From IMG/VR virus record IMGVR_UViG_3300043409_002246, positions 1-64,000 of that record: a stretch of DNA of 64,000 bases; one strand, given 5' to 3'. The notes below the pieces were generated by a model that ran no database searches, was not told the DNA's origin, and worked only from the letters and a program-made list of their open reading frames with translations. This stretch comes from a virus. This document shows, one piece after another, positions 27,134 through 61,049 of the stretch. The translations under genes and the position numbers were made by a program. Numbering within the stretch: the stretch's first letter is position 1; each line of letters opens with the position of its first letter.

Positions 27134-27136
27134 TAT

Positions 27137-28269: not shown

Positions 28270-28280
28270 ATCGGCATCTT
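28252..28280 (+). promoter_or_regulatory. Promoter TTGACA-N17-CATCTT
   Basis: Repeated motif; AGGAG follows. Confidence 0.75.
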
Positions 28281-28295
28281 AACTAGGAGAATCTT

Positions 28296-29588: not shown

Positions 29589-29589
29589 A

Positions 29590-32171: not shown

Positions 32172-32176
32172 GGACT

Positions 32177-43924: not shown

Positions 43925-45280
43925 ATGAGCGAATCACTACCGTCCAGTCGGAGCGAGGTCCAGTTCAACGTCCCGGTCAACCGGCTGCAACAGCCGGACA
44001 TGCCGGTGCTGACGGGCATGGCTGACGCTTTTCAACGCGGCGCGCTCGACGTGCAGACTCTTTTCAAGTCGGCCTCGATGGGGAGCGACCTCAAACGGCA
44101 GAAGGCGGAAGACGAAGTGCGCGTGACGAAAGCCAAGAGCGAGCTTGAGTCTGCCCCGGCTGAACAGGCAGTCCGGATTGCTAAACTAGAGTCGGAGCTT
44201 GCCGACATAAAGAACAAGGAGTTGAATCGGCCCAAAGTAGAGGCTTTCAAGTCGGCGGAGGCGGACATCGCGATTGCAAACCAGACGGCTAGAAAGCTGG
44301 CGGCGGCTAATTTCAGTAACGGCGTAGAGCCAGATGCCCTGACGTTAGTTCAAGCTTGGGAGTCAAACTTCAAGAACGAGGCCATCCCCTACCGCGCCGA
44401 GCAGGGTCAGCGGGAATTTCTCGACTACAATAAGATGCGGGAACGTCTTGCACCGATTCAAAAACGCGACGCCGAACAGGCGGCGCAGGGGCCCGCGTCC
44501 GCGCTGAATACCGCCAGCAACATCAAACAAGCTGCGGAAAGCGGGCGACCTCTATATCACGCGGACGGGAAGGCAAAGACTACCTTTGAATTGGACTCTG
44601 ACCGGGTCAAGGATTTCGCGGCTCTGCGGGATACCGGGACGCCCTTGACGGAGCGCCAAAAGATAGACCAGAGAGATGTTCTGGATCGCAACCTTCAGCT
44701 TCTCGCGGACATGGAGCAGGCTTCTACCATCATCGCAAAGGATACCGCGACCGGCCCGTTCATAGGGACCCTACCCGGTCAGGCGGCAGCATGGGCGCTG
44801 GCCGCGACGCGGATTGACCCGACCATTCGGGACGACCAAAAGAAATTGACGATGTTCGCCAACTGGAAGGTTGCGGAAGGGACCCAGCTTTTGAAGGGCG
44901 CCCTGTCTGAGAAGGAATTGAAGTTCATTGAGCAGACGGTCCCCGAGCTTTCTTCCAGCAAATTAGTGTGGGAACAATATCTGGCTCCGAGGATCAAGAT
45001 GCTCAAAGCCGCCAATGACCGAATGGTGCGGGGCGGTAAAGTCCCGGCGCCGGGCGAGGCAGATTTGACTGACGGTTTGGAGAGCCTACCGATGGCTACT
45101 CAACCTTCCTCCAATGTGGGAGTTCCCTCTTCCCGCCCGCCTTCGCCGATTCCAGACGGACAGCCGGGGTCAACCAAAGAGAACCCGGCTAAGGCTGCTT
45201 CCGCAGATGAATACGCGAAGCTCGCGCACGGGGCGTGGTATTGGAACGCCAAGCACAAAATGTCACTCCAAAAACCTTGA
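43925..45280 (+). CDS. Probable internal virion protein
   Basis: Helical; LKGALSEKELKF motif; C-terminal EYAKLAHGAWY element. Confidence 0.55.
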   Translation: MSESLPSSRSEVQFNVPVNRLQQPDMPVLTGMADAFQRGALDVQTLFKSASMGSDLKRQKAEDEVRVTKAKSELESAPAEQAVRIAKLESELADIKNKELNRPKVEAFKSAEADIAIANQTARKLAAANFSNGVEPDALTLVQAWESNFKNEAIPYRAEQGQREFLDYNKMRERLAPIQKRDAEQAAQGPASALNTASNIKQAAESGRPLYHADGKAKTTFELDSDRVKDFAALRDTGTPLTERQKIDQRDVLDRNLQLLADMEQASTIIAKDTATGPFIGTLPGQAAAWALAATRIDPTIRDDQKKLTMFANWKVAEGTQLLKGALSEKELKFIEQTVPELSSSKLVWEQYLAPRIKMLKAANDRMVRGGKVPAPGEADLTDGLESLPMATQPSSNVGVPSSRPPSPIPDGQPGSTKENPAKAASADEYAKLAHGAWYWNAKHKMSLQKP

Positions 45281-45309
45281 TTGACAAACGGGGTCAAACG
45301 GGGCATCTT
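45281..45309 (+). promoter_or_regulatory. Promoter TTGACA-N17-CATCTT, near-leaderless
   Basis: Spacer holds a tandem CAAACGGGG; ATG at 45319. Confidence 0.75.
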
Positions 45310-45318
45310 AATTCAGAC

Positions 45319-48300
45319 ATGTCTTCACTGATTGATACTAATCGGATCGCCGATCCGGCACCTGAACCTCTGTCCATGAACATCCCCGACCCGGGACTGG
45401 CGCCGCTTCCGGCTCCGCCTGCCGGCGGATTCCAGATGTTGCCCCTGCCGGTTGCGCCCGTGGCGCCGGTTGCGCCCGCCGAGCCGTGGAGTCCGCCTGA
45501 CGAAATTTCGGGACTTCCCGGGACGGAGTCGTGGAGTCCGCCTGACGAAATCTCGGGGATAGAGTCCGCCGAGCAGTGGAGCCCTCCCGAGGCAGATGTT
45601 GCTCTCGAAAAGATTCGTTCTTATTCCCCGGAGAAACTCGCGGAGATGGCAGAGCCGGAGCGACAGGCACTTTGGGCGGAGGTTCGGGATTTCGCGCCGC
45701 CGGACGATCTGAAGAAACTGGCAGACGCTTCTGCGAAACACCGCGCCATCGGGCTAACCCCCAAGATCGTCGCTGAAGGCGTCGCCGGGACGCTCGGCAC
45801 TTTGTGGAAAATGGGAACCAGTCTGGTGCAGGCCGGTTGGTCGGCTACCCACCTTCCCGGTCCTTCCGACATCAAGAAGATTCTCAAAGCTACCTCGAAA
45901 GATGAAGCCTTGAAAATCTTGGCCGACGTTAGCACCCGCTCTGACGCGGAACTCGTGTCGGGGTTGTCCACTGCCAGCGCCAACGCGGTTATCCTCGCCC
46001 GGGATGCGATTCGCGAGATTGTGAATTTTGAGCCCCCGGTAGGTAAGGCCCTCGGCATCCCCGGGACCCGGGACATCCTGAGCGCCGTGACGGGAACCGA
46101 CCTTACAAAGCGCCTCGGAGCCGACGTTTCCGACCCTGAGAATTTTCTCGAACCGGAGGACAACGTAAAGCGTTTTCTGAACGATTTCGACGCCGCTGAC
46201 GCGGTGAATAAAACCGCCGAGGGCCAGTCGGTGTTCTCCGAGTGGCTCGGGATGGATGCCGCAGAACTGAAGAAGCAGGACATCGAGATCAACCCCGAGG
46301 CCATCGAAGGCTTCGGAGTCGCGCTCGACATTACGAATTTGGTCCCGGCCTTGGGAGCGTTAAAGTCGCTCAAGGTCGTAAAGCTGGCGGGGGTTGGAAA
46401 CGCCGCCGCGCGGTCGGCGCTGGTTGACGAAGCCGGAAAAGTCTATCTCACCACGGCGAAAGAAGGAACCGCGCTTTTCATGGCGCAAAGGCTCGCGCAA
46501 AAGGCAGCAGCGGGAGTTGCCGCTGTCGGTGACGCGGCTGCTAAGTTCGGTAAGCGAGCCTTCCAAAGCAAGACCGTCGGGGCAGGCGCCTTTGGAGCGT
46601 TAGCGGCAGGTCATGCCGCCACGGCGGGTAAAGCGGCGGCGCTTGCCGGCGGAACCATGTTGTCGGGCAAGGCCGTCGCGGGCATCGCCCGGATGGCCGG
46701 CAGTCAAACCGCCATAAATTTTGCAACCGACGTGGGAGTCTCCGCGCTCAAGGGAGCCAAAGGCGGGTTACTGTTCGGCTTGCCGCTGGCGGCGCTGACG
46801 GATGACCCGGAGAAGCAAGTTGCAATGGCGACTATCGCGCCGGCAATCGGCGGAGTAATCGGCGGAGCGATGGGCGGAGCTACCGGCATCAAACGCGCGG
46901 CGCTGGCCAAGACGGAGGCCATCAACCGGACGATTCTCAAGAACGCGGAGCAACTCGGAGACGTTGATCCGGCACAGCCGCACGATCTCGCGGTCGAAGG
47001 CCATGAAGCGGTCGAGGCCATGCACCGGGAGAATCAGTCCAAGATCGCGGACGACAACAGTCGCAACCGGGTGAACATCGTCCGGCGGCTTGCTGAAAAA
47101 TTGGGACGGCCAATGTATGTCGTCACTCCCGATCAGTTTGCCGCTCTTGGAGTCCGGGCAGCTTCGGGCGTGGCTGACCATCCAATCAACGGCAAGCCGG
47201 CCATGTTGGTCAAGCTCAATCCCGACGGAAGTCTCCCCGCGCTCGGTCACGAATTGGCTCACCCGGTCCTCGATTCTTTTAAGGCGGAGAATGCCCCCGA
47301 AGGCATGGCCCCGGAGATGGTTGCTCTGCGCCAACGGCTGCACGATGAATTGATGGCGTCCTTCAGGAAGCGCAAGGTTGGCGCGATGGAGGCGGACATG
47401 AACTCGACGCTTGTCAAGGCCGTCAAGGCGGCGCAAGTTGCCCTCGCTGAGAGGCCCGAGAGCGCGCGGCTTCAAATCAAGTTGGCCGAGGCGCAGGCCG
47501 CTCTCCAAAAGGAAGGCATCAACCTCGGTCAAGGTGCCGAAGAACTGGCTGCTGAAGCTCTCACCGTCGTAATGGAAGGCCGGGGGCTCACCGGCGACGT
47601 GAAGTTCACTCCGGAAAACGCCAGCGCGGCTAACCGTCTATTTTTGTCGTTGCTCGAAAGTCTCGGGTTGGTCAACGATCAGGTGCTCGCGCGCTTGCCC
47701 GAGGGAATGGATCGCAAGTCGAACGTATCGCCGGGCCAAGAGGTCGAGCACACGCAACGCTCGATTCGCGCCGCGCAGGCGCTTTGGGATAATTTTCACG
47801 ACAACCCGCTAATCAAAGAGGCGCTGGCCGACGCGGGCGGAACCCCCGAAGCACCCGCAGCGCCCGACGCTCCGGTCGCTCCCGTGGTGCCGGACAATGC
47901 GGCAGCAATCGCCGCGCGGCTCGCCGAACTGAAGAAGTCCGGCACGCACACCCTCGCGCAGAAGCTTCTCGACAAATTCAATCGCGGTGAAGTGCTGACG
48001 CCGGACGAGCAAGCCAACTTTGACACGTTTTTCGGCAAGCTCAATCTCGGCAAGCCGGCTCAACCGGTGATCGCTCCCGTGGCTCCCCAGCCGATTCCTC
48101 CGGTAATCCGGGGAGTGAAGCCTACCCCTCCGTTTAACCCGGGCAGCAAAGAACTCAACGGGCTCAACATGCCCCTCGGGACCGATGTTCCCGTAAATCC
48201 CGTGACACCCGGGGCGCCTCCGGTAATTGAAGCGCCCAGCCGGCGGGGGCAGACCTCCGCAGATTTTAACAACCCCGCGCGGGACGCGGCAGACGCGGCG

Positions 48301-51300
48301 ACGGCGGCTCAGGCGGAACGAGTGGCGAAGTCGAACCTGCCGAAGGAGGCCAAATCTGCGTTTGCGAAAATCGCGGCCTTGCCCGGCGCGCTCTGGAAGA
48401 TTCTCCACGAAGGCGCCAAGAATGAAGAGGGCGCCGCCGGCATGTTGGATCAACGTCGCCGACAGGTAATCCAAGCGGCTCGCGACAACCCGGCTCTCAG
48501 GGACGAAGCGAACAAGTATGGATGGATGAAGAAGTCCTCGGAAGTAACCTCCGGGGGCGAAGAGATTTTAGTCGGCTTCAACGGTGAGGCTCTGCTGGCG
48601 AACGCATTGCTCGCGGTGAAAGAAATCGGGTTCAAAAAAGTTCCCTACCTCAAAGACAAAGTAGTCGGCGGGGAGTTGACCGGAGAGGGGCTGAGAGCCA
48701 TCCGCGAGGACCAGCTAAAATATCTTCAGAATCAAAATGCGGGATTCGGCGGCGACGGGTCAAAGCTGGTCCGTGGAAAAGAGACGGCGCAGCATGTCCC
48801 GGCGGAGGACCCGAACTACACGCCGCAGCAACTTTCTTCGCCGGACGCACTCGACTTTATCAATCTGACGATGGGGGAGAACACCCCGATTTCCGCGAAG
48901 GTTTACACCAAGGGAACCCCGGTGCCGATTCTCGCGGCGGACTTCGCCAAAGCGAACAAGAAAGTCGGAACTCCCGCGCTCGGCAAAGACGGCCAGCCGT
49001 TGATTTACGCGAAGGAGCCTTTTGCCGGCCAGCCGATTGAGGGATTCAACAAGCTGCGCGCCGACCTCGAAGCGCAGGGAGTTAATTTCCGGGACCTGAA
49101 GCCCGCGAGCGAGCGTCTGAACGTCAAGAATCTACGGGGAGCGGAAGTGATGGAGAACGTGTCCGGGATGAAACCGAACGTGTCCGTCACTACGGCAGCG
49201 GGGTTCATGGCAGAGAAGCGCGCGATCCAGATCGAAGGCCCTGATGGGAAAATGTATGATGCGACCTTCGACGGCTGGCAGGATTTCGGCAAGCTGAAGG
49301 GCTGGGGCCAGCAGGCTCAAATTACCACGCTTGAGAAGATGCCCGGGTTCAGCGACGGCACCACGACCTACGAAGCCGCGCTCCGTGAGGCCGGCTACAA
49401 GGTTCAAGATTTCGGCAAGCCGCAGACGCTCAAAGAAGACCCGGCGGCGCACGTCCCCGGGGAAGTCAGCAAGCGCCCGGACGACACCGCGCTGAAACTT
49501 CCGACTCCTGCGGACGCGCCGGTGAAGCTCGCCGGGGATGACATCGGACTCACCCCGGCTCGGTTCATGGCGGAGAAAGTCTCCGGCAGCGAGCATACCG
49601 AACAGAGTCCATCCTACCCGGATGCCATCGAGAAAGCGAAAGCGCGCGGCGGCAATGCGTGGGTGCGGCAGACCGATTCCCCGACGAACGCCGACCGCGT
49701 ATTGCTCGTGCAGTTCGCGCCGGAGTTGATGTATCCGAACGGCCCGGACCCGATCTCGACTCCGTATTACGAGAAGCTTTACTCCGGGGTCCGCAAGGGC
49801 TTCGACAAGGCTCCGACGTTTTGGGAAATCCCGCAATGGGCCGCAGTCGCGAAGAACAATCTGGCCAAGTCTGATTTTTACGCGGTTCACAACGTCGCGG
49901 AAGCGAAGGCATTTTTGGAAAAAGCGGACTACGGTCGCGTGGCCTTCTCCGTGATGGACGTGAGCAAGGCGCTGACCGAAGAACTCGTGCCGCATATCAA
50001 GGGCGAGGTTGACCTCGGCGGCTACACCGACCGCACCGCCGCCGCCGCACTCAGCCCGAAGTCGCACATTTGGAACTCGATGAATGAGTTCGTGGAAGCG
50101 CAGGGCGTGAAATACCAGAAGGGCTTCGACTACGCGCACTTTCGGGGCACGCCGATCATCCCGCGCATGGAACTGTCGGCAGGTTGCCGGCACAAATGCA
50201 CGTTCTGCACTATTGACCGCAAGGTGACGAACAGCCCCGTCTCTGAAGTCAACGCACAGGTGGACTCCTTCTCCGACCTGAACGCGAAGCTGGTGTATTT
50301 GAACGACAAAACCTTCGGCCAGTCCCCGAACGTCGCGGAGATGCCGCGTATCTTCAAACAGATGAAGGAAGCGAACCCCGAGTTCGAGGGCTTCGTGATC
50401 CAGACCACGGCGGCGCAGATGAAGCTGTTCAAGCCCGAGTTCCTGAAGGAAGCCGGCATCAAATACGTGGAGCTTGGCGTTGAATCTTACAACGACTCCA
50501 TTCTGAAGCCGCTGCGGAAGCCGGCGAATGAAAAGCTGATTGACGAAGCCGTCACCAAGCTGCGCGAGACGGGAGTGAACTTCATCCCGAACATCGTCAT
50601 CGGCTTCCCGGAAGAGACTGCCGCGACCTACGCGCACACGATGGATTTCCTCCGCAAGAATGAGGACATCATCAGCCACGTCAACGTGTATAACCTCGCG
50701 GTTTACGAGGGCACCGAGATTTCCGGCAAGATCAAGACGAAGACTGCCGGCGACGTGGACGAGAACACGGCGGCGAAATCCTTCCACAAGGACCCGGCGC
50801 TGCACGCCAAGTTTGCAAAAGACGTTTACGACTTCGCCACGGAGCGCCTCGGCAAGCCGGCAGCGTTCATGGCTGAGAAGGTAGCCCGGGAGCGAACTGC
50901 GGAAGCTCACCCCTCTCTCAAAGACGAGACGGGGATGCCGAAGATGTTTTATCACGGGTCGTTCAAATCGAAAGAGTTGATCGCTTCCGGAGGGTGGGAT
51001 ATTGACAAAACCAAATCTGGCGGTCTATTCGGAAAGGGGTTTTACTTTACCGACAACCCCGGGGTAGCCGGCGGAGTCCCTTGGAGAAATTCTTTGCGGA
51101 AGCTCGTTGGGAAATCCCCCGAGGGCTACGCGATGCAACCTACCTCGACGAATTCGTTCTTTGAGCAGAAGGTAAACCCGGCGGAAGGAACCCCCGGGGT
51201 GTTTCCGGCGTATCTGGATTTGCGGAACCCGTTCATCGCCGACAAAACTTATACTGGACCCGAGGCGCTGGCTTTAATCGAGAAGTTGCCTCCACTGCCC

Positions 51301-54300
51301 GAGGGCTATGGGACCGCCCGTAAGTTTTTCGAGCGGACTCTAGCTGACGCGCCCCGACCTCTTCGGGGGACTGATCTGTTCAAAGCGGTTCAGGAATACG
51401 CCATCAAGTCGCAGAAGGCCGACGAATTTCTAGGATACCAAGCGGACCCCTCGGGAGCTTCCCTGAAGGGGTTGGAGATGGCGCCGGATCGAGTAGTTCG
51501 CTGGATGCAGGAAGCGGGCTACGATGGAGTTACCTACCTAGGCGGAGTCACCCGAAAAGCGACGTTCACTTCACTCGGAGAACACGCTGTCGCCGTGGCC
51601 TTCGCGCCGGAGCAAATCATCTCCCCCTACGAGAAGCCCGGGTCCGAGCCCGGCAGGTTCATGGCTGAGAAGGGCCGGCCTCTCACCGAGGCGGGCGAGG
51701 CACTCGAACGCAAAGGTTTATTTTTCACCGGCACGCGCGATCCGAAGGACGGTCTGACGGTTCTCCGATACAGCAACAGTTCCGGGGAGCCCGTCGCGGA
51801 CATTTCCTTCCGGGCGGCGGACGGCGCCAAGTCGGCGACGGTCAACATGGTGTTCACCGACGAGACATATCGCCGGCTCGGCCTCGCGGAAGCACTCACG
51901 CGCGAAATGGGCGCACGCTTGCAGGAGGCCGGAGTCACCGACTTAAAGGGCACCGCAGTTTCTAACAAGGAAGGCGAGTTTCCCGCCATCGGCCTGCGGA
52001 AGAAAGTTTTCGGCAACGTGGAAATCCGCCCCATCAAGGGCTTGGAGGGCACCGACAAAACCGTCGGGATGCAGGACATCCGCTCGAAAGTTGACCCGAA
52101 CCAGAAGTTCATGGCGGAGAAAACTCAAGCCACGAAGGAGATTGAGTCCTCCGGTTTGGAGTTTTCGGAGAAGGGCAATACCCTGAAATTCAAGGATGGG
52201 AAAAAGACCGTGGCATACCTTCGCTACTCTGTGAACGATGGAGAGGCGTATCTGGACGAAACCAAAACCGACGCCGGCTACCGAAGGCGGGGGTTGGCGG
52301 AAGCACTTTATCGGGAGTTGGGCTCCCGGTTGCAGAAGTCTGGCATTACGGTCCTCGACGGGGACGTGATTTCGGAGGCGCCTCTTCACTTGAGGAAGAA
52401 AGTATTCGGTAACGTCCAAGAGTCGGGAAAAGAATTGACGTTGTCTGTCCCGGAACCTCTACTTAATCAGAGGGACGCGCTGCTGGAAGAGAAACGCGGG
52501 CTGGAAAAAGTTCTGTTAGACGTGGAGAACGAGATCACCCGAGCGTGGAACGCGGGAGAGCGGAAGACGAGCGCGAAGAATGAACTTGCACTGAAACAAG
52601 CCGAAACAAACCTAGCGGCGGTTCGCCAGCGTGTCGAGGACTTCAACCGGGACAACCCCGGAGTTTTGGGGTTCCAGAAAAGTCCCCCGGGTCACGACGC
52701 TACTAAGAAATTTGACGATCACGTATGGATGCAAGTGTCCTCCAAAGTTGACCCGAACCAAAAGTTCATGGCGGAGAAAACGTGGATCACCCGCGAAGGT
52801 GAAGTCGTGGACGCCAAGGGAGATCACGCACGCGACGCCGCCGAACGCCACGGCGTGAAGATCACGAACGACACGCGCGACAAGTCGGTCAACGCGGCGC
52901 TCGACAAGGGCGAGGTTCAGGCGGAGTTGATGGACAACACGCTCTACCTTTTTGCCGACGCTGCATCGTTCACCGAACTCAACCGCCGGCAGCGCGCGGC
53001 CATCGAGAAAGCAGCCCTCGAAGGCGGTCACGCAGTCGTTTACAACGGCAAGCACATTGAAGACTTCGGGCCGGCCATGAAGTTCATGGCGGACAAGGCT
53101 ACCAACTCCCGAGGGTTGCCTCCGGCAGTCGAAAAGGACGTTAGGCGGGCGGCTAGAATTCTGCGAGCTTCCGAACAGCGCCTCCGGGACCTTCCCGACG
53201 GAGCTTCCCTCGAACAACGGGACGCGGCAGTGGGAAGCCTGAGCAAGGCCGAGCAACTTCTGAATGATGTCAATCTCAACTACGATATTCTGGATTTTCC
53301 GGCGTTGGAGTGGGTGCGAAAATCACTTCGAGAACATGCCTCCGACTTGACCGACCTGCTAAACACCGAGCGCCGACCGGCGATAACCGAGGATGCGGCT
53401 TTAATCGGGCGACTCGCCGACGGCATGGATGATCTCCTAAAGCCCGCCTCCAAGTCCTTCATGGCGGACAAGTCTCCGACCGTGTGGATCACCCCGGACG
53501 GGAAGAAGGAGCCGCTGGGGGGAGTCCTGCACGAACACTACCTCGCGCAGAACTCCGATAAGCTCAACAAGAAGTTCGGCACCAAGTTCTCTGGCGAATA
53601 CGATGAAGCGCAACGGCTGAAAGCTTTGAACGCCGGATTCGTCCGGGTCCGATCCTCCGGGCAGGGCGACATGACGGTCGAACTGAACGAAAGATTTTGG
53701 GGCAAGCGCAAAGCCCAGCTTCTCGCCCATGCCCTCGACAACGTGGCCGAGATGAACTCGTTGACCGTGGACCTTCTCACCGACAAGGGCAAGCACGTCG
53801 CCGGAAACTACGCTGACGTGTATGTGTCCAAGGACCCGAGCCAAGCGATTCGGGACGTGTTTTCCGAGATGCTCCTGCCGACCGGGAAGCCGACGGTCAA
53901 GGAACCGACGGCGATCCAGCGCGCCCGCGCGATGCGCGAGCCGCAATACATGGCGGACAAGGTCAAAGCGCCCGTAGTCGAAGATCAACTCGAACTCGGA
54001 AAGCCGGCGCCGCCGATTGACCGCTACAACCGGGAGTTCGTGAAGTCGCTCACGCTCGAACAGAAGAAAGAACATTTCCCCGAGGCGGTCGTAACCGCGC
54101 GCGACGCGGACGGAACGCCGCCGTTAATCGGCTCCGACATTGTCGGCTCGCCGATGGTGAAGAAATATGGCGAGGCGGCTGCGATCAAGAAAGTCGGCGA
54201 CAAGCTCGCGGCCCGTTACGAAGAATTCAAGAACGATCCGGCAGTCGAACTCGGGAGAACGTGGTATTCCCGTTTTACCGGCCCGCTGAAAAAGCACTTC

Positions 54301-55224
54301 GGCAAAGACGCTTCGCTGTTCGCGGAATTGCTGGCCGCGACCTCCCCGCAGACGCAGCCGAAGCAGAACTTCGAGACGGCGTATCACGCTTTCGAGCTTT
54401 ACAAGGCTGGTTGGTTCGACGATCTGGTTGCCGGGTTTATCGAAGGGCTCGACAAGATTGAGTCCGGCGTGCTATATCAAGATTACGTGGACGCGGTGCC
54501 GGCGAGCAAGCGGCCCGCGAAGATTTCCGACGAGACTCTTCTCGGCTGGTGGATTGACAGCCAGAATTTGCGCCCGACGAAAGCGCCCCGGCTCAAAGGC
54601 AAAAGTCTGAGCATCGAAGACGAAGTGCTTTTCAACGCCAATAGCGTCGCGGTGCTGAAGGTCGCGGCCCGGAAGTGGATGACGGAGAACACGGGACCGA
54701 AGACGAGCCAGTTCGTCCGCAACCTGCTTGGACTTGACCACGGCGCCACGATTGACCTTTGGGCCGACCGTTCGGTTCGCGAGGCGGCTTACTCCGACTT
54801 CGAGAAACGCTGGCGGATTCTTCCGGAGAACACCAAGGGCGTGTCCGACGTGGACTTCGACTTTTCTCAGGCCGCATTCAAGCACGGCGCGGACAAACTT
54901 GGTATGAAACCAAGTGAGTTGCAAGGCGCGCTCTGGTTCTTGGAAAAACGCCGTTGGGCGGAGAAAGGCTGGTCGCAACTCAATCTCGGCGATTACCTGC
55001 CGCACTTGCAGGAACTCGTGGATGCCGGCCCGCTCTCCGAGGCGCTAAAGAACGTCCCCATCTCAAGGGCTAAAGCCTTGGCCGACGTGGTCATCGCGCG
55101 CAAGCAACTGGTGAAGGCGAAGGCGGAAGTCGCCAAGATCGAGCACGCCGAAGATTTGGCCATCCGCCGGGCGAAGTCGCGGCAGGAAACCTTTGCCCTT
55201 GACATCAAACCCAAAGCCAAGTAA
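45319..55224 (+). CDS. Giant polyvalent internal virion protein (~3301 aa): zincin, radical SAM, ART-like, 2x GNAT and HhH-like modules separated by [FY]MA[ED]K
   Basis: HELAH...EELAAE; CRHKCTFC; FYHGS...GKGFYFT; YRR.GLAEAL twice; ATSPQ...GPKT...TIDLW; last gene of the ejection cluster. Confidence 0.85.
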   Translation: MSSLIDTNRIADPAPEPLSMNIPDPGLAPLPAPPAGGFQMLPLPVAPVAPVAPAEPWSPPDEISGLPGTESWSPPDEISGIESAEQWSPPEADVALEKIRSYSPEKLAEMAEPERQALWAEVRDFAPPDDLKKLADASAKHRAIGLTPKIVAEGVAGTLGTLWKMGTSLVQAGWSATHLPGPSDIKKILKATSKDEALKILADVSTRSDAELVSGLSTASANAVILARDAIREIVNFEPPVGKALGIPGTRDILSAVTGTDLTKRLGADVSDPENFLEPEDNVKRFLNDFDAADAVNKTAEGQSVFSEWLGMDAAELKKQDIEINPEAIEGFGVALDITNLVPALGALKSLKVVKLAGVGNAAARSALVDEAGKVYLTTAKEGTALFMAQRLAQKAAAGVAAVGDAAAKFGKRAFQSKTVGAGAFGALAAGHAATAGKAAALAGGTMLSGKAVAGIARMAGSQTAINFATDVGVSALKGAKGGLLFGLPLAALTDDPEKQVAMATIAPAIGGVIGGAMGGATGIKRAALAKTEAINRTILKNAEQLGDVDPAQPHDLAVEGHEAVEAMHRENQSKIADDNSRNRVNIVRRLAEKLGRPMYVVTPDQFAALGVRAASGVADHPINGKPAMLVKLNPDGSLPALGHELAHPVLDSFKAENAPEGMAPEMVALRQRLHDELMASFRKRKVGAMEADMNSTLVKAVKAAQVALAERPESARLQIKLAEAQAALQKEGINLGQGAEELAAEALTVVMEGRGLTGDVKFTPENASAANRLFLSLLESLGLVNDQVLARLPEGMDRKSNVSPGQEVEHTQRSIRAAQALWDNFHDNPLIKEALADAGGTPEAPAAPDAPVAPVVPDNAAAIAARLAELKKSGTHTLAQKLLDKFNRGEVLTPDEQANFDTFFGKLNLGKPAQPVIAPVAPQPIPPVIRGVKPTPPFNPGSKELNGLNMPLGTDVPVNPVTPGAPPVIEAPSRRGQTSADFNNPARDAADAATAAQAERVAKSNLPKEAKSAFAKIAALPGALWKILHEGAKNEEGAAGMLDQRRRQVIQAARDNPALRDEANKYGWMKKSSEVTSGGEEILVGFNGEALLANALLAVKEIGFKKVPYLKDKVVGGELTGEGLRAIREDQLKYLQNQNAGFGGDGSKLVRGKETAQHVPAEDPNYTPQQLSSPDALDFINLTMGENTPISAKVYTKGTPVPILAADFAKANKKVGTPALGKDGQPLIYAKEPFAGQPIEGFNKLRADLEAQGVNFRDLKPASERLNVKNLRGAEVMENVSGMKPNVSVTTAAGFMAEKRAIQIEGPDGKMYDATFDGWQDFGKLKGWGQQAQITTLEKMPGFSDGTTTYEAALREAGYKVQDFGKPQTLKEDPAAHVPGEVSKRPDDTALKLPTPADAPVKLAGDDIGLTPARFMAEKVSGSEHTEQSPSYPDAIEKAKARGGNAWVRQTDSPTNADRVLLVQFAPELMYPNGPDPISTPYYEKLYSGVRKGFDKAPTFWEIPQWAAVAKNNLAKSDFYAVHNVAEAKAFLEKADYGRVAFSVMDVSKALTEELVPHIKGEVDLGGYTDRTAAAALSPKSHIWNSMNEFVEAQGVKYQKGFDYAHFRGTPIIPRMELSAGCRHKCTFCTIDRKVTNSPVSEVNAQVDSFSDLNAKLVYLNDKTFGQSPNVAEMPRIFKQMKEANPEFEGFVIQTTAAQMKLFKPEFLKEAGIKYVELGVESYNDSILKPLRKPANEKLIDEAVTKLRETGVNFIPNIVIGFPEETAATYAHTMDFLRKNEDIISHVNVYNLAVYEGTEISGKIKTKTAGDVDENTAAKSFHKDPALHAKFAKDVYDFATERLGKPAAFMAEKVARERTAEAHPSLKDETGMPKMFYHGSFKSKELIASGGWDIDKTKSGGLFGKGFYFTDNPGVAGGVPWRNSLRKLVGKSPEGYAMQPTSTNSFFEQKVNPAEGTPGVFPAYLDLRNPFIADKTYTGPEALALIEKLPPLPEGYGTARKFFERTLADAPRPLRGTDLFKAVQEYAIKSQKADEFLGYQADPSGASLKGLEMAPDRVVRWMQEAGYDGVTYLGGVTRKATFTSLGEHAVAVAFAPEQIISPYEKPGSEPGRFMAEKGRPLTEAGEALERKGLFFTGTRDPKDGLTVLRYSNSSGEPVADISFRAADGAKSATVNMVFTDETYRRLGLAEALTREMGARLQEAGVTDLKGTAVSNKEGEFPAIGLRKKVFGNVEIRPIKGLEGTDKTVGMQDIRSKVDPNQKFMAEKTQATKEIESSGLEFSEKGNTLKFKDGKKTVAYLRYSVNDGEAYLDETKTDAGYRRRGLAEALYRELGSRLQKSGITVLDGDVISEAPLHLRKKVFGNVQESGKELTLSVPEPLLNQRDALLEEKRGLEKVLLDVENEITRAWNAGERKTSAKNELALKQAETNLAAVRQRVEDFNRDNPGVLGFQKSPPGHDATKKFDDHVWMQVSSKVDPNQKFMAEKTWITREGEVVDAKGDHARDAAERHGVKITNDTRDKSVNAALDKGEVQAELMDNTLYLFADAASFTELNRRQRAAIEKAALEGGHAVVYNGKHIEDFGPAMKFMADKATNSRGLPPAVEKDVRRAARILRASEQRLRDLPDGASLEQRDAAVGSLSKAEQLLNDVNLNYDILDFPALEWVRKSLREHASDLTDLLNTERRPAITEDAALIGRLADGMDDLLKPASKSFMADKSPTVWITPDGKKEPLGGVLHEHYLAQNSDKLNKKFGTKFSGEYDEAQRLKALNAGFVRVRSSGQGDMTVELNERFWGKRKAQLLAHALDNVAEMNSLTVDLLTDKGKHVAGNYADVYVSKDPSQAIRDVFSEMLLPTGKPTVKEPTAIQRARAMREPQYMADKVKAPVVEDQLELGKPAPPIDRYNREFVKSLTLEQKKEHFPEAVVTARDADGTPPLIGSDIVGSPMVKKYGEAAAIKKVGDKLAARYEEFKNDPAVELGRTWYSRFTGPLKKHFGKDASLFAELLAATSPQTQPKQNFETAYHAFELYKAGWFDDLVAGFIEGLDKIESGVLYQDYVDAVPASKRPAKISDETLLGWWIDSQNLRPTKAPRLKGKSLSIEDEVLFNANSVAVLKVAARKWMTENTGPKTSQFVRNLLGLDHGATIDLWADRSVREAAYSDFEKRWRILPENTKGVSDVDFDFSQAAFKHGADKLGMKPSELQGALWFLEKRRWAEKGWSQLNLGDYLPHLQELVDAGPLSEALKNVPISRAKALADVVIARKQLVKAKAEVAKIEHAEDLAIRRAKSRQETFALDIKPKAK
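52087..52124 (+). repeat. 38-bp direct repeat (37/38 identical to 52744-52781)
   Basis: aaagttgacccgaacca(g/a)aagttcatggcggagaaaac. Confidence 0.9.
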
Positions 55225-55234
55225 CTTGTGACCT

Positions 55235-55426
55235 ATGATAAATGATAAGCTACCAGAGATTTCGGAGAAAGAACTGCCGGCGCTGATTGACGGTGCGCGG
55301 CAGGCAACCAGTTCCGGCCTCGACGGATTCATCCGCCGGGTGCTTGGTCTTGGCGCCGCAGATCAAGCCACGCTTGAACAATCACCCCCAAACGACGCGG
55401 TTGATAATCAACCGTCCCGCAGTTGA
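55235..55426 (+). CDS. Small hypothetical protein
   Basis: 63-aa ORF whose stop lies in the next -35 box. Confidence 0.5.
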   Translation: MINDKLPEISEKELPALIDGARQATSSGLDGFIRRVLGLGAADQATLEQSPPNDAVDNQPSRS

Positions 55427-55451
55427 CAATTAACCGCCGCAGAGGCATCTT
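55423..55451 (+). promoter_or_regulatory. Promoter TTGACA-N17-CATCTT, leaderless
   Basis: ATG 6 nt after the -10 box. Confidence 0.75.
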
Positions 55452-55457
55452 AAATAT

Positions 55458-56057
55458 ATGATCGAACAACTCATGCCGGCGCCCAGCGCCGAAACCGAAG
55501 CGCCCGTCGAACCGACTCAACCCGAGGCGGAAATCCCCGCGCTTGAAGAAGGCACCGAATTCCCCAAGGGCGGGCAACTCCTATTCCGCGCCATCGCCAA
55601 CGGCCAAATCCCGGGCGCCTACGTGGCGGCGGGCTCAACCGGCGGCATTGATAACCCTCCGCCGAGAGAGGCGATCACCGGTATGGGGATCGAATTTTTC
55701 AAGCCGAAGGTGTCAACGGACGTAATGGCAGTGCTCTACAACCCGAAAGCCCTGAATGTCAAGGAGTTAACCCGCCTCGACGAGACGGGCAAGCTGACCG
55801 AGGTTTTCCCGAACGCTGCCAGCATCGTTGGGAGCCCCGCCAGTGCGTCGGAGGATCAGACCAACCCGGACGGCTCGGTCGCTCCCAGCGTGCCGGAAAT
55901 GCCCCAGCAGGTGCCAATCCAGCCACGGCAGGCCGCAGGTGGGGACCCGATGGCTGCACAGCGCCTCGCGGTGCTGAATAGTGGCGGTTCCCCCTCAAAA
56001 AGAGTCGTCCCCGGCGGCGGTGCCGTTCTGGACGGTCTAATGCGCCGCGCAGTCTGA
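55458..56057 (+). CDS. Hypothetical protein
   Basis: 199-aa ORF with its own promoter. Confidence 0.7.
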   Translation: MIEQLMPAPSAETEAPVEPTQPEAEIPALEEGTEFPKGGQLLFRAIANGQIPGAYVAAGSTGGIDNPPPREAITGMGIEFFKPKVSTDVMAVLYNPKALNVKELTRLDETGKLTEVFPNAASIVGSPASASEDQTNPDGSVAPSVPEMPQQVPIQPRQAAGGDPMAAQRLAVLNSGGSPSKRVVPGGGAVLDGLMRRAV

Positions 56058-56088
56058 TTTCTGCCCTCCCCTCTGGTTGAAAAACCAT

Positions 56089-56120
56089 ACGCCGTCAGAC
56101 GTGAGTCTGGCGGCGTTTTA
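56089..56120. terminator. Intrinsic terminator between convergent blocks
   Basis: acgccgtcagac-gtga-gtctggcggcgt followed by TTT. Confidence 0.75.
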
Positions 56121-56133
56121 CTGAATGTCGCCT

Positions 56134-56163
56134 TGTTACAAGAAGTGGGAGCTTTTTGTAACA
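56134..56163. other. Candidate tyrosine-recombinase core site (attP/lox-like, 12-6-12)
   Basis: TGTTACAAGAAG-TGGGAG-CTTTTTGTAACA (arms match 11/12), ~160 bp from the recombinase stop. Confidence 0.5.
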
Positions 56164-56233
56164 GAGACGATTTCCCGATCCGGCAAATGTCAATTTTCAA
56201 GAAATTAGCAGTAGATTGATAGTTCAGCGAAAA

Positions 56234-56263
56234 GGCCGCTTTCACCGAGCGGTGAAAACGGCC
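56234..56263. repeat. Inverted repeat/hairpin downstream of the recombinase
   Basis: GGCCGCTTTCACCG-AG-CGGTGAAAACGGCC. Confidence 0.7.
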
Positions 56264-56324
56264 AGAGTGAGGCAATCGTAGGATTTTATCTCATGGGTTC
56301 ACCCTCCTTTCGCACAGTTCCTTT

Positions 56325-57215
56325 TCAGAAATTCATCTTCGCGGCGGCGGAGCGCAGGTGCTCGTTGCTCAGGTGCCCGTAAACCTTCGACACCAGAATG
56401 CCGCCGTCGGAGTGGCCGAGCATCGCGGCCACGGTCATAAAGTCAATGCCGGCCATGACGGCGCGGCTGGCGAACGCGTGGCGCAGGTCGTGTAAACACA
56501 TCGTCCCCAACCCAGCCGCGCGGCTGACCGCGCTGAAGACTGCCGAGGGGCTGATCCAGTGGCCGGCGCTGGTCCGGTCGGGCGAGGGGAACAGCCACTC
56601 ATTCTCGTCGCGCCGCGAGGCATACATGGCTTTCAGGTGATCGAAAAGTGACTTGTTCATCACCACGACAACGTCCTTGTCGAACTTGGTGTGAAACACG
56701 ATGGTTCGCTTGCCGAAGTCAACATCCGACCAGCGGGCGGAGATTCCGGCCTGCCGCCGGCAACCGCTATAAGCGACCAGCCGCAAGTAGTCCGCCAGCA
56801 TCTTCCCGTTGCGGAACTCCGGTCGCTCCTTCCAATCCAAGCGGGTAGCCACGGTGCAGAGCCGTTCGAGCGCGTCGTCCGGTATCAACTCCCGGCGGGG
56901 CGTCTTGTGCTTTAGCGGCTTCCATTCCGCCGTCACCAAGGGCGCCTTGGAAAAGAGGCCCGTTTCCAAACCGAACTTTAGCACGTTGTGCAACGAGAGA
57001 ATGTCGAGGTTGACGGTGCGATTGCACACGTCCTCCCCCCGGTTCATCGCGAACTCGTTCAGGTCGGAGCGGGTGATCTGGTCCGCCTCGCGGTCGCCGT
57101 AGGCGGTGAGCCAGCGGTCGAGCGTGTAGCGTTCTTTCTGCACCGTCAGCGGCGACTTGGATCGCAGCCGGGTGACGGAGTCCAAGTATTTTTCAGACAG
57201 TTCTCGTAACTTCAT
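56325..57215 (-). CDS. Tyrosine recombinase/integrase (short, ~296 aa)
   Basis: YSGCR, TK, HDLRH, LGH, VYGH catalytic residues; ATGA-coupled start. Confidence 0.9.
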   Translation of the reverse strand: MKLRELSEKYLDSVTRLRSKSPLTVQKERYTLDRWLTAYGDREADQITRSDLNEFAMNRGEDVCNRTVNLDILSLHNVLKFGLETGLFSKAPLVTAEWKPLKHKTPRRELIPDDALERLCTVATRLDWKERPEFRNGKMLADYLRLVAYSGCRRQAGISARWSDVDFGKRTIVFHTKFDKDVVVVMNKSLFDHLKAMYASRRDENEWLFPSPDRTSAGHWISPSAVFSAVSRAAGLGTMCLHDLRHAFASRAVMAGIDFMTVAAMLGHSDGGILVSKVYGHLSNEHLRSAAAKMNF

Positions 57216-57415
57216 GCGCGTGCGAGGGTAGTGGTCTGGCCCCAGCGCGGGAAAAACCATCCCCGGACGGCCCATTCGTGGCGGGTGAAGGTTTTGCCGG
57301 TGGGACGCCGGTCGGTGATTACGCCCGTCTTGGGACAGACGCGGTAACTTTCCTCCGGGATGGAGCGTTGACGCGGAGCCGGCCTTGCCGGTCCTTTGCA
57401 GTGTTCAAGTTTCAT
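57212..57415 (-). CDS. Small basic protein co-transcribed with the recombinase (leaderless)
   Basis: ATG 6 nt after the -10 box; its stop overlaps the recombinase ATG. Confidence 0.55.
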   Translation of the reverse strand: MKLEHCKGPARPAPRQRSIPEESYRVCPKTGVITDRRPTGKTFTRHEWAVRGWFFPRWGQTTTLARA

Positions 57416-60350: not shown

Positions 60351-61049
60351 TCAGAGCAAATCGTGTTTCTGTGCCGCGAGCGCGCCGCGAAGTTTCCGCA
60401 GCGCCCGCATCCGCAGGTTGCCGACGGCCTGCCGCTTCACTTTCATCGCCTTCGCCGTCTCGGTCTGCGTTTTGCCGTCCAGTTCATGCCGGATGATCCG
60501 GCGTTCTGCCGTCGTCAGCATCCGCGCGGCGTGTAAAATGGACTCTCGTCTCACTGAGTTAAGTTGCCTGTTTTCATAGCCTTCGTCAACCTCTAATTTC
60601 ATGTCCGCGTAATCCCGGTTCCACGTCGAACCGGTCAGGTGGGCGCGGCCCGTAACGACTGCGCCTTCCCCGTATTCGTCGTGATACGAAAATGCACTTT
60701 TTCCGAGGCGCTGGCCCTTCTTCAACGACTCGAAGACCTGCCCCCGGATGAACTTCCGCAGATACCCCGAGAAGCGCGGCCCGCGCGCCGGGTTGAAGCG
60801 CCGCGTCTTCAATGCCTGCATCAGTCCGAAGTTGCCGGCGCTGATGGCGTCGTCTTCGTCCAAGGCTCCCTTCGCGCAGGCGATGGCCGTCTTGGCGGTG
60901 AACTTCAGGTAGTGCCGTATGATCCGATTGCGCGCCCGCAGCGAGTTGCTGGTGCGGGAGTGGTAAACTTTGAACAGCGCCGCCTCGTCGTCACGGGAAA
61001 GCGGAGTGAAGGAGAGGTCGGTGGCTTCGGAGTAGTATGGCATAAACAT
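60351..61049 (-). CDS. Sigma-70 family RNA polymerase sigma factor
   Basis: Region 2 DDAISAGNFGLMQA...FNP.RG.RFSGY...IRG; region 4 TQTETAKAMKVKRQAV...RALRKLR. Confidence 0.85.
   Translation of the reverse strand: MFMPYYSEATDLSFTPLSRDDEAALFKVYHSRTSNSLRARNRIIRHYLKFTAKTAIACAKGALDEDDAISAGNFGLMQALKTRRFNPARGPRFSGYLRKFIRGQVFESLKKGQRLGKSAFSYHDEYGEGAVVTGRAHLTGSTWNRDYADMKLEVDEGYENRQLNSVRRESILHAARMLTTAERRIIRHELDGKTQTETAKAMKVKRQAVGNLRMRALRKLRGALAAQKHDLL

Follow-up and report, generated by a model that had tools for sequence, protein, structure and literature searches.

The locus considered here raises the question of whether the short stretch of DNA that recurs between the domains of a giant phage protein is only a peptide signal, or whether it is also the place at which these domains are exchanged. 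It lies in the window, which is the whole stretch of 64,000 nucleotides that was analysed (positions 1 to 64,000 of the 75,414-base IMG/VR virus record IMGVR_UViG_3300043409_002246, from an uncultured freshwater phage). The first-pass annotation had proposed that modules are gained, lost or duplicated in frame by microhomology recombination at the linker DNA, like in an integron cassette array inside one reading frame.

Modules and border peptide of the giant protein

The giant reading frame (Table 1) begins with a GTG codon, and the database gene call (P0002) starts 28 codons further downstream and has 3301 aa. Tail-fibre-like genes are found upstream of it. Because Radical_SAM, ART-PolyVal, two weak GNAT and DUF7178 matches of Pfam share this one reading frame, its product is a phage polyvalent protein, in which an N-terminal part of 1324 aa is followed by nine effector modules. 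The protein is a chain of enzyme modules that are set apart by one short repeated peptide, [F/Y]MA[E/D]K, which is encoded by TWCATGGCNGANAAR and carried by all nine module borders. The conserved linker motif had already been noticed from the letters alone, and it holds: the nine matches in the 75,414-base record all lie on the plus strand and in the giant reading frame alone, where 0.01 matches are expected and none of 100 shuffles reached nine, and neither the reverse strand of the whole record nor the reversed-pattern control gave a match. Read in frame, the linker is FMAEK six times, FMADK twice and YMADK once, and seven of the nine copies are within the originally annotated span (50866-53961). 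The 163-aa module is the most widespread one and occurs also as free-standing small proteins, and for the ART and the 125-aa module no paralogue was found within the array.

Table 1. Features of the giant reading frame and its linkers (window positions)
Feature	Position	Strand	Remarks
Giant ORF, 3329 aa from GTG	45235..55224	+	phage polyvalent (multi-effector) protein
HELAH (HExxH)	47248..47262	+	in the N-terminal part (1324 aa); candidate zinc peptidase acting in cis, motif level only
Linker 1, TTCATGGCAGAGAAG (FMAEK)	49204..49218	+
120-aa module	49207..49566	+	no Pfam family; GC3 0.775
Linker 2, TTCATGGCGGAGAAA (FMAEK)	49564..49578	+
Radical SAM module, 434 aa	49567..50868	+	PF04055, E 1.3e-14; GC3 0.813
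Linker 3, TTCATGGCTGAGAAG	50866..50880	+	same 15-mer as linker 4
ART-PolyVal ADP-ribosyltransferase module, 264 aa	50869..51660	+	PF18760, 39.1 bits vs cut-off 31.2; GC3 0.659
Linker 4, TTCATGGCTGAGAAG	51658..51672	+	same 15-mer as linker 3
GNAT module 1 (GNAT1), 150 aa	51661..52110	+	GC3 0.780
42-nt repeat, copy 1	52083..52124	+	GNAT1 tail (SKVDPNQKF) and linker 5
Linker 5	52108..52122	+	inside first copy of 42-nt repeat
GNAT module 2 (GNAT2), 219 aa	52111..52767	+	helical insert; GC3 0.658; variable
42-nt repeat, copy 2	52740..52781	+	GNAT2 tail and linker 6
Linker 6	52765..52779	+	inside second copy of 42-nt repeat
106-aa module	52768..53085	+	no Pfam family; GC3 0.792
Linker 7, TTCATGGCGGACAAG (FMADK)	53083..53097	+	same 15-mer as linker 8
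125-aa helical module	53086..53460	+	no Pfam family; GC3 0.640
Linker 8, TTCATGGCGGACAAG (FMADK)	53458..53472	+	same 15-mer as linker 7
163-aa module	53461..53949	+	GC3 0.822
Linker 9, TACATGGCGGACAAG (YMADK)	53947..53961	+
C-terminal DUF7178 module, 424 aa	53950..55221	+	PF23802, E 2.4e-10; GC3 0.752

There are 79 giant relatives with varied module sets, and they use other peptides at the same borders. The motif [FY]MA[ED]K is absent from all 78 relatives P0003-P0080 and occurs once in P0081, and the relatives each repeat a border motif of their own, for example FQPK, FMPK, FLPK, FMAER, QFSP or QAQPK. A general form of these, [FY][QMLS][PA], is found at -10 to +8 residues from 56 of the 124 projected module starts in relatives, compared with 210 of 2480 random positions. 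The codons of the border motif vary even inside single genes of relatives, and it is thus the peptide that is conserved. Of 12 genes of relatives that were examined, 10 have no exact repeat of at least 14 nt at a linker, and identity of the linker DNA is therefore not a maintained feature. Judged from these sequences, the linker is conserved as a peptide and not as DNA, and the assumption of a conserved DNA element had to be given up.

Since there is an in-frame ATG in each of the nine linkers, it could be thought that this is an internal start codon from which modules are also made as separate proteins, and the free-standing GNAT relative P0210 indeed starts with MPKTKAG, which resembles the F-MPK-TEAG borders of giant relatives. 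Most relatives, however, have the Met-less FQPK, FLPK or QFSP at the same borders, and by eye no consistent Shine-Dalgarno-like run precedes the nine linker ATGs, so that internal starts have the slightest chance of all explanations considered.

The border peptide may rather be a putative recognition or cutting site for the HExxH motif in the N-terminal part. The H, E and H of this motif are invariant in all 12 aligned sequences, and HExxH occurs in 67 of 81 proteins, with some copies outside the N-terminal region. The region matched no Pfam peptidase family and no PDB sequence.

Codon usage and silent sites along the array

Along the array, GC3 alternates between 0.64-0.66 and 0.78-0.82, and it switches at the linkers. 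The nine array modules are heterogeneous (chi2 44.4, 8 df, p 5e-7), and a joint shift of all borders gives the highest chi2 at -5 to 0 codons (45.3, 44.4) and only 16-18 at ±60 codons. When the segment lengths were put into random order 5000 times, the observed value was never reached. The codon switch at linkers that had been seen by eye is therefore real, and GC3 is not uniform across the modules. In a CAI-like index with 13 late genes as reference, ART (0.631), GNAT2 (0.658) and the 125-aa module (0.598) differ from the other six array modules (0.76-0.83), and these three low modules are, as had been claimed, richer in CTA, TTA, GTA and TCT (4.5, 3.7 and 2.4 per 100 codons in the same order, compared with 1.86 in the reference genes). 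It does not hold that the adjacent modules have a genome-typical high GC3: with 0.725 in the reference late genes and a median of 0.71 in 56 long ORFs, the low modules are slightly below and the high ones slightly above the genome, and both are within the gene-to-gene range of this phage.

The atypical modules are flanked by identical linker copies. The repeat of 38 nt that had been noted, with one mismatch (52087-52124 and 52744-52781) exists and brackets GNAT2 exactly; it extends to 42 nt with two mismatches, and the spacing of 657 nt corresponds to the second GNAT module plus one linker. The exact run that is shared through linkers 3 and 4 has 17 nt. Identical 15-mers are found in three of the eight adjacent linker pairs of the window and in two of the 28 non-adjacent ones, and the three identical adjacent pairs are exactly those around ART, GNAT2 and the 125-aa module, a pairing with the low-GC3 modules that was noticed after the fact and that has a chance of 1 in 56 by our own arithmetic (three modules among eight). 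The window gene contains 11 exact repeats of at least 14 nt, compared with a mean of 1.0 in codon shuffles, and eight of its ten longest exact repeats cover a linker, while one more is the GNAT tail adjoining one. The two GNAT modules are paralogous (41% identity, E 1e-19), and where they have the same residue, they use the same codon at 10 of 13 positions in the tail and linker and at 19 of 56 in the body (Fisher p 0.006). The tail SKVDPNQKF is a feature of the family, with SSKIDPNQKF in P0012 and TSTIDPNAQF in P0024.

Module polymorphism in contigs and relatives

If modules are exchanged at linkers, arrays that lack single modules should exist, and a deletion of 657 nt, from one 38-nt repeat copy to the other, had been named as the event to look for. 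It is present in one contig. The metagenome evidence consists of assembled contigs that were aligned at 85% similarity, where each joint is represented by a single contig at a depth of 2.7-3.5, from the source run (X1) and from runs of two other studies (X3 and X4). In the 544-nt contig 21 of X3, 51819-52082 is joined directly to 52740-53008, by which 657 nt are skipped ("both 24", side 255), and the joint falls inside the repeat. Two X4 contigs start at 52740 with nine loose letters, GGACATCCG, that are found once in the window, at 52074-52082 directly before the first repeat copy, and these loose ends would imply the same loss of GNAT2. One X3 contig joins 53085 to 53461 and skips the 125-aa module (375 nt), with a weaker joint ("both 11", side 51, "between: not known"). 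No joint of this kind is present in the contigs of the source run, but rare variants are lost when reads are assembled into contigs.

The GNAT2-less contig is 90-97% identical to the window, and as the two GNATs are just 41% identical, the presence or absence of GNAT2 is recent and the duplication is old. This bears on the explanation that nothing was acquired from outside, that the GNATs are an old tandem duplication with ends kept alike by gene conversion, and that the codon differences reflect amino-acid content or translation needs. The paralogy, the family-wide tail and a GC3 of the low modules within the genome range agree with it. The recent polymorphism does not. The codon shift, with identical linkers on both sides, is seen also for ART and the 125-aa module, which have no paralogue in the array, and the low GC3 of a variable module recurs in an independent lineage (L029, below); this explanation is thus quite improbable.

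Related phages gain and lose whole modules at the peptide-coding linker DNA. Six protein pairs of 84-100% identity differ by nine indels of at least 30 aa, eight of which begin and end at a linker motif; the flanks of the nine are at least 74% identical, with the exception of one (40%). In four of the nine, an exact repeat of 5-9 aa (GAFMAKRKE, RQFQPK, QAQPK, ESQFQP) is found at the joint, with no scar. Between P0041 and P0044, a block of about 450 aa is replaced, again with both ends at linkers. Module order differs between relatives, with breakpoints at the linkers, as the exchange idea predicts. In L029, a 130-aa module (GC3 0.485, neighbours 0.801 and 0.683) lies between perfect 26-nt repeats, and L027 lacks it, with flanks that are 99.5% and 100% identical over 600 nt. 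As the 14 nt upstream of TTCATG differ between the two, a plain deletion from one 26-nt repeat to the other does not explain this event.

What the linker DNA contributes to such events is less certain. The linker might be only a protein signal or a flexible spacer, so that illegitimate recombination is random, selection keeps the in-frame, module-precise products, and modules spread via homologous recombination in conserved neighbours, without any part for the linker DNA. A motif that is kept as a peptide with varied codons, the lack of exact linker repeats in most relatives' genes (10 of 12) and the L027/L029 junction speak for this, as do sharp identity transitions in the linker-free N-terminal part (P0041/P0044 at column 160, L028/L029 at column 736). 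It does not account well for the more similar silent sites in GNAT tail and linker, the identical 15-mers around exactly the three atypical modules, the perfect 26-nt repeats around the variable L029 module and the scarless exact repeats at four of nine indels, and we regard it as a possible but rather unlikely explanation. A module-precise indel in an array of repeated linkers always has its joint inside a repeat, and therefore joints at linkers alone are no proof of a homology-driven event. Of the original proposal, in-frame gain and loss with breaks at the linker thus stands, and microhomology as the driver, over selection for module-precise products, is not supported by these data.

Known modular systems and the likely role of the linker

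In an integron, each cassette is a gene of its own that lacks a promoter and has a hairpin-forming attC site, and IntI moves it. Like in integron arrays, serial units are gained or lost singly at a repeated boundary sequence, but the units of the phage protein share a single ORF and its frame, and what separates them is a coding motif of 15 nt at which no inverted repeat recurs. A dedicated site-specific system, in which a recombinase such as the tyrosine integrase 1.1 kb downstream (Phage_integrase family, 56328-57275, minus strand) recognises linker DNA and moves circular module cassettes, would fit the identical linker copies around each atypical module, as after a Campbell-type insertion. 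However, no inverted repeat recurs at the linkers (one of the eight found touches one), linker DNA differs between relatives with varying silent sites, no linker copy or spare cassette is found outside the ORF in the 75,414-base record, and in the simplest view the integrase serves the integration of the phage itself. The integron-like cassette array is hence to be abandoned as very improbable.

In the modular theory of Susskind and Botstein, short conserved sequences at the borders of lambdoid phage modules are said to have been proposed as sites of homologous exchange. The linkers are similar as candidate exchange sites, but lambdoid borders are between genes, whereas these are inside one reading frame and constrained as a peptide. 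MARTX toxins are made by bacteria and act on eukaryotic cells, and they contain RTX repeats as well as a cysteine protease domain. These giant delivered proteins have a central array of exchangeable effector domains that are released by the in-cis protease, and the set is changed by recombination between strains. A paper by Kwak, Jeong and Satchell from 2011, cited in a review of MARTX toxins (PMC6315884), is reportedly devoted to this recombination. The phage protein resembles them as a giant protein with an exchangeable effector-domain array and, presumably, with release by a protease in cis; unlike in MARTX, neither RTX repeats nor a cysteine protease domain were reported by Pfam in the giant ORF, and we know of no fixed junction peptide of this kind in MARTX toxins.

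In the polymorphic toxin CdiA, according to the passages concerned in PMC7662968, a short conserved peptide (VENN motif) marks the border between the constant part and the replaceable toxin, and the conserved coding sequence is thought to permit replacement via homologous recombination; each protein has a single variable tip and an accompanying immunity gene, and cdiA-CT/cdiI modules lie as orphans outside the gene. The short conserved peptide at the border of an exchangeable part is common to both, but here there are nine serial in-frame modules, with no immunity genes between them and no spare cassette or linker copy elsewhere.

Phages and conjugative elements have polyvalent proteins (Iyer, Burroughs, Anand, de Souza and Aravind 2017, PMC5512222), which likewise unite many unrelated effector domains, ART-PolyVal among them, in one giant phage polypeptide. 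In the passages on these proteins, an embedded metallopeptidase is proposed to release the domains by autoproteolysis, extensive mosaicism is noted, and it is suggested as a possibility that recombination makes these proteins variable in the way of polymorphic toxin cassettes. These passages contain no junction peptide or breakpoint rule, and "linker" and "shuffl" do not occur in the main text. Different from what is described there, the protein studied here has a defined lineage-specific border peptide to which module indels map, and its HExxH region matches no Pfam peptidase model.

Taken as a whole, a polyvalent array with a selected border peptide, in which the linker is the site of in-frame module turnover, is reasonably probable. 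The lineage-specific junction peptide would be the selected feature at each border and would allow separate enzymes to be cut from the chain, with the in-cis HExxH as the probable peptidase. As a small set of codons is repeated from border to border, the linker is also the place of in-frame gain, loss and replacement of modules. The atypical modules would have been gained in this phage and not lost in the others, and short homology may have driven the change: the longer DNA identity at their borders would be a fading trace of recombination by short homology, or of template switching, in the linker and not a sequence kept for recombination. Near-identical phages could also exchange modules via ordinary homologous recombination in conserved neighbouring modules. 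ART, GNAT2 and the 125-aa module may be those units of the array that were acquired last or that move most, marked by atypical codons and identical flanking linker DNA, and GNAT2 at least is absent from close relatives.

Modules and linkers of the giant protein

The window covers the first 64 kb of a virus record of 75,414 bases (CheckV completeness 100), and its giant ORF encodes a polyvalent protein of a phage as defined by Iyer et al. 2017 (PMC5512222). The single polypeptide unites several enzymatic or effector domains that are unrelated to each other, one of them (ART-PolyVal) belongs to a domain family that was defined from polyvalent proteins, and the gene is viral, in a neighbourhood of late or virion genes, with tail-fibre-like genes upstream on the same strand (25955-33625). 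The database gene call for this protein (P0002) starts 28 codons downstream of the start of the ORF. By a word-based search, 79 further giant proteins (1893-5345 aa) were detected in which the module sets are shuffled; LPD38 and ART-PolyVal occur among them, and the modules include radical SAM, DUF7178, ART, GNAT, histidine phosphatase, NUDIX, methyltransferase, nucleotidyltransferase and other domains.

Features of the giant ORF and its downstream neighbours
Feature	Position	Strand	Remarks
Giant ORF	45235-55224	+	3329 aa; all modules in frame, no stop codon
Radical_SAM module	49567-50868	+	Pfam E 1.3e-14
ART-PolyVal module	50869-51660	+	Pfam PF18760, E 1.6e-9, 39.1 bits (curated cut-off 31.2)
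GNAT1 module	51661-52110	+	weak, below Pfam cut-offs; paralogous to GNAT2
GNAT2 module	52111-52767	+	weak, below Pfam cut-offs; paralogous to GNAT1
DUF7178 module	53950-55221	+	Pfam E 2.4e-10
Phage_integrase family tyrosine recombinase	56328-57275	-	E 6e-19; 1.1 kb downstream of the giant ORF
Sigma-70-like factor	60354-61049	-	regions 2 and 4
731-aa protein	61062-63254	-	weak DUF5906 match

Among the cargo modules, the radical SAM module is conserved best; it is found in 39 of the 79 relatives and is 69-71% identical to that of the giant relatives P0003-P0005. Neither this module nor the DUF7178 module has a tblastn match in 50,697 GenBank phage records; in IMG/VR, relatives of the former were found at 54% identity only and no close relative of the latter, and among GTDB genome contigs close relatives were found neither of P0004 nor of the radical SAM module. 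Small free-standing proteins of 122-192 aa (P0123, P0163, P0157, P0158, P0173, P0193, P0210) match the 125-aa, 163-aa and GNAT modules. The integrase gene downstream of the giant ORF indicates that the phage is probably temperate. Near the N-terminus of the giant protein, a 32-nt tandem repeat with a period of 45 nt (45481-45557) encodes (E)xWSPPDEISG, and contigs of the metagenome runs X1, X2 and X3 have joints that go back by 34 or loose ends at 45445-45481, suggesting strain differences in copy number. In the tail-fibre region, two adjacent plus-strand ORFs (33632-34606 and 34608-35582) of exactly 324 aa each have a low GC3 (0.60 and 0.66) and may be tandem paralogues.

The C-terminal 2005 aa of the giant protein are divided into nine modules by nine linkers, which encode FMAEK (six linkers), FMADK (two) and YMADK (one). 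The pattern TWCATGGCNGANAAR has 9 matches against 0.01 expected, all of them in frame in the giant ORF, and none was found elsewhere in the whole 75,414-base record. The gene contains 11 exact repeats of at least 14 nt, compared with 1.0 in codon shuffles, and 8 of the ten longest include a linker, a ninth being the GNAT tail that adjoins one. A 38-nt repeat had been described as bracketing GNAT2; it is present with one mismatch, can be lengthened to 42 nt if two mismatches are allowed, and has a spacing of 657 nt, which is exactly one module, while the longest exact repeat within the window's copy is 20 nt. Identical 15-mers are shared by 5 of the 36 linker pairs overall and by 3 of the 8 adjacent pairs, and these three are exactly the pairs around the ART, GNAT2 and 125-aa modules. 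By post hoc arithmetic, the chance of three modules among eight coinciding with the identical linkers is 1 in 56.

Movement of modules at the linkers

The same three modules are distinguished by their codon usage. An alternation of GC3 with a switch at the linkers had been noticed by eye in the first-pass annotation, and it is borne out by the values of the individual modules (ART 0.659, GNAT1 0.780, GNAT2 0.658, 106-aa 0.792, 125-aa 0.640, 163-aa 0.822), which are heterogeneous (chi2 44.4, 8 df, p 5e-7). The contrast is sharpest with borders at the linkers or at most about 10 codons away, and none of 5000 random orders of the segment lengths matched it. A CAI-like index with 13 late genes as reference sets the same modules apart, as ART, GNAT2 and the 125-aa module reach 0.60-0.66 and the other modules 0.76-0.83. 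The high-GC3 modules had been taken as typical of the genome, but as its typical GC3 is about 0.71-0.73, the low modules are slightly under the genome and the high modules slightly over it.

A comparison of relatives gave nine indels of at least 30 aa between near-identical proteins, and in 8 of these both ends are at the linker motif, as the idea of an exchange at the linkers had demanded; an exact repeat is found at the joint in 4 of the 9. Thus, a 128-aa indel between the locus L029 and P0008 lies between two GAFMAKRKE copies, P0071 and P0072 differ by 92 aa between RQFQPK copies and by 73 aa between QAQPK copies, P0041 and P0044 differ by 175 aa between ESQFQP copies and also by a replaced block of ~450 aa with both ends at linkers, and the pairs L020/P0138 and P0064/P0073 have two indels each. 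The count leaves out five indels of P0018/P0065, a pair that is 75% identical, because they lie in a badly aligned replaced region with flanks of 25-78% identity. No internal indel of at least 30 aa was found in the pairs P0014/P0214, P0044/P0056 and P0037/P0047. The indels of P0071/P0072, P0041/P0044, P0064/P0073 and L029/P0008 were seen at the protein level only, as a single scan of metagenomes with P0072 as query yielded neither the P0071 nor the P0072 contig. At the DNA level, L029 carries a 130-aa module between perfect 26-nt repeats that is missing in L027, with flanks of 600 nt on either side being 99.5% and 100% identical. This module has a GC3 of 0.485 compared with 0.801 and 0.683 in its neighbours; the codon signature seen in the window thus recurs in an independent lineage. 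In the lineage of L027, L029 and P0008 (flanks 96-100% identical), 0, 1 or 2 extra modules (130 aa, 128 aa) are present at the linker that follows the radical SAM module, and as ART holds the same position in the window, this linker resembles a hot spot for insertions.

Loss of the 657-nt unit had been predicted from the sequence of the window, and Logan contigs of four metagenome runs were compared with positions 44000-56500 at 85% likeness. X1 is possibly the source sample and hence not independent, X3 comes from a freshwater sediment study and X4 from a sediment study of another year. Contig 21 of X3 matches 51819-52082 (25 of 264 letters differ) and then directly 52740-53008 (7 of 269 differ), with zero letters between; it omits the 657 nt of GNAT2, and 24 letters fit both sides of the joint. 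Logan assemblies are built with words of 31 letters, and since the longest exact repeat of 20 nt is shorter than such a word, the repeat is unlikely to have caused a false join. In X4, two 220-nt contigs start at 52740, each preceded by 9 loose letters that occur once in the window, at 52074-52082, immediately before the first repeat copy, so that in both contigs, too, the GNAT1 tail is followed by the 106-aa module. The predicted loss is therefore found in one X3 contig, with which the two X4 contigs agree by their loose ends. As another X3 contig lies within GNAT2 (52348-52581, 3 letters differ), forms with and without this module coexist in the sample. In one more X3 contig, 53085 is joined to 53461 and the 375-nt module is missing, with 11 letters fitting both sides; this joint is weaker, since its shorter side has 51 letters and the stretch between was reported as not known.

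The 657-nt joint was not found among the X1 contigs, and X2 gave short identical pieces only, with no joint bearing on module loss. A long skip in X1 from 50912 to 55078 was discounted (side of 21, 2 letters between). The depth of X3 and X4 is zero over 51089-51505 inside ART, and contig 24 of X4 stops within linker 3 (50873); since none of the contigs in the compared runs bridges the radical SAM module and GNAT1, the zero depth is no sign that ART is absent. Among the matches listed, that of X3 contig 23 (1325 nt) to the window starts no earlier than 53949, within the opening bases of linker 9, and leaves out 748 of the contig's letters. Within 49303-51585, X1 contigs break at about 49323, 49865, 51009 and 51585, and contig depth, which is a poor measure, goes from 12 to 7-8 and then 10.7; the breaks may reflect strain variation over the 120-aa, radical SAM and ART modules. 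Taken together, metagenomes, near-identical protein pairs and the DNA of one pair agree that modules move at the linker.

Junction peptide and linker DNA

The linker motif of the window is absent from 78 relatives, and a further one has a single copy. The relatives have recurrent private motifs (FQPK, FMPK, FLPK, FMAER, QFSP, QFAP, QAQPK), which in BLAST alignments coincide with the starts and ends of the window's modules; [FY][QMLS][PA] occurs within -10 to +8 residues of 56 of the 124 projected module starts, compared with 210 of 2480 random positions. In the relatives compared at the DNA level, the motifs are encoded by varying codons (TTT/TTC, CAA/CAG, CCG/CCT/CCC, AAA/AAG). As the motifs differ and their codons vary, the conserved object is the peptide, an aromatic residue followed by Q/M/L/S, then P/A and usually a charged residue, in a version private to each lineage. 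The use of the linker ATG as an internal start codon is excluded as a general rule, because many linkers without Met occupy the same borders in relatives. The N-terminus of the small protein P0210, MPKTKAG, resembles F-MPK-TEAG borders of giant relatives, and the linker Met may sometimes turn into, or derive from, a start codon.

A peptide of this kind could be a cleavage site. The N-terminal part of the giant ORF contains an HExxH motif (47248-47262) that is invariant in all 12 aligned giant proteins, and 67 of 81 proteins have an HExxH somewhere, in most cases at a comparable place. An embedded zincin-like metallopeptidase (MPTase) is a feature of many polyvalent proteins (Iyer et al. 2017, PMC5512222). 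The HExxH region gave no match to peptidases in Pfam or in PDB sequence and profile searches, and the ESM Atlas gave weak leads only, to LPD domains (scores up to 0.81). Judged from its sequence, it may be an undescribed zincin-like domain, and it would be natural to consider it a candidate peptidase that cuts the chain in cis at the junction peptide.

Whether the linker DNA itself takes part in module exchange is partly shown. GNAT1 and GNAT2 are old paralogues with 41% identity, in which identical residues share their codon at 19 of 56 positions in the body compared with 10 of 13 in tail and linker (p 0.006), where the shared codons include the rarer AAA and GTT. Because codons are more often alike in tail and linker than in the body, the repeat is younger than the duplication. 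Against the linker DNA as a cause, a module-precise indel must join inside the repeated linker whatever its mechanism, and modules can also spread by homologous recombination within neighbouring modules. Furthermore, the junction of L027 differs from that of L029 in 14 nt before TTCATG and is therefore not the product of a simple repeat-to-repeat deletion, and most relatives have no DNA repeat at their linkers (no exact repeat of at least 14 nt in 10 of the 12 relatives' genes examined). The extended DNA identity at the borders would therefore best be read as the decaying footprint of recent linker events and not as a maintained recombination site. It is a rather unlikely idea that the linker coding sequence has a dual use, as protease site in the protein and as a portable short-homology joint in the DNA, by which co-infecting or resident phages would capture and shed single effector modules in frame through template switching or single-strand annealing, possibly with excised module-plus-linker circles. 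If true, the linker would be a cassette-capture system inside one reading frame, with a private linker dialect per phage lineage.

Known systems and significance

The array had been likened to an integron, and this likeness does not hold. Integron cassettes are separate, mostly promoterless genes, whereas the modules are in frame in one ORF without a stop. Integrons also have an IntI-type integrase with an adjacent attI site, and the window carries a Phage_integrase family gene of generic type that nothing links to the linkers. Spare cassettes are absent, and of eight inverted repeats in 49100-54100, searched for attC-type elements, one touches a linker and none recurs. The observation on which the first-pass annotation was based is thus confirmed and its interpretation partly supported: modules move at the linker, support for an integron-like machinery is lacking, and a role of the DNA is partly shown.

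The nearest working parallels are found in the VENN border of CdiA, a conserved coding sequence that is thought to permit toxin replacement (PMC7662968), and in the effector arrays of MARTX toxins (reviewed in PMC6315884). Like in CdiA/Rhs polymorphic toxins, where a conserved peptide marks the replaceable part, there are nine [FY]MA[ED]K borders in the window and analogous motifs in relatives. Those toxins differ in having a cognate immunity gene per toxin and orphan cassettes outside, while the window has no ORFs between modules and the 75-kb record no further linker copy. As for MARTX, neither of its marks, RTX repeats and a cysteine protease domain, appeared in a Pfam scan of all ten pieces with E up to 0.1. 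MARTX toxins were reportedly treated by Kwak et al. in 2011.

The polyvalent class, its mosaicism and the idea of an autoproteolytic release come from Iyer et al. 2017 (PMC5512222), the main text of which does not contain the words "linker" or "shuffl"; outside subscription journals and supplements, no literature on junction peptides or breakpoint rules in polyvalent proteins was found. What is new here is that a deletion predicted from sequence alone is found in one contig of another study, with two contigs of a third agreeing, and also that codon-atypical modules are linked with identical flanking linker DNA.

It was proposed in 2017 that polyvalent proteins are cut into separate effectors after delivery, with the cutting sites left unnamed in the main text (Iyer et al., PMC5512222). 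As the borders are exact and repeated, they are putative cutting sites that are accessible to proteomic and mutational tests. The linker borders also explain how phages re-assort their sets of injected enzymes, which probably serve anti-defence or host takeover, with the reading frame kept intact. A rule that modules swap at the junction peptide would aid in dividing giant phage proteins, of which thousands lack annotation, into functional units, and in spotting recently acquired modules by their codon usage and flanking repeats.
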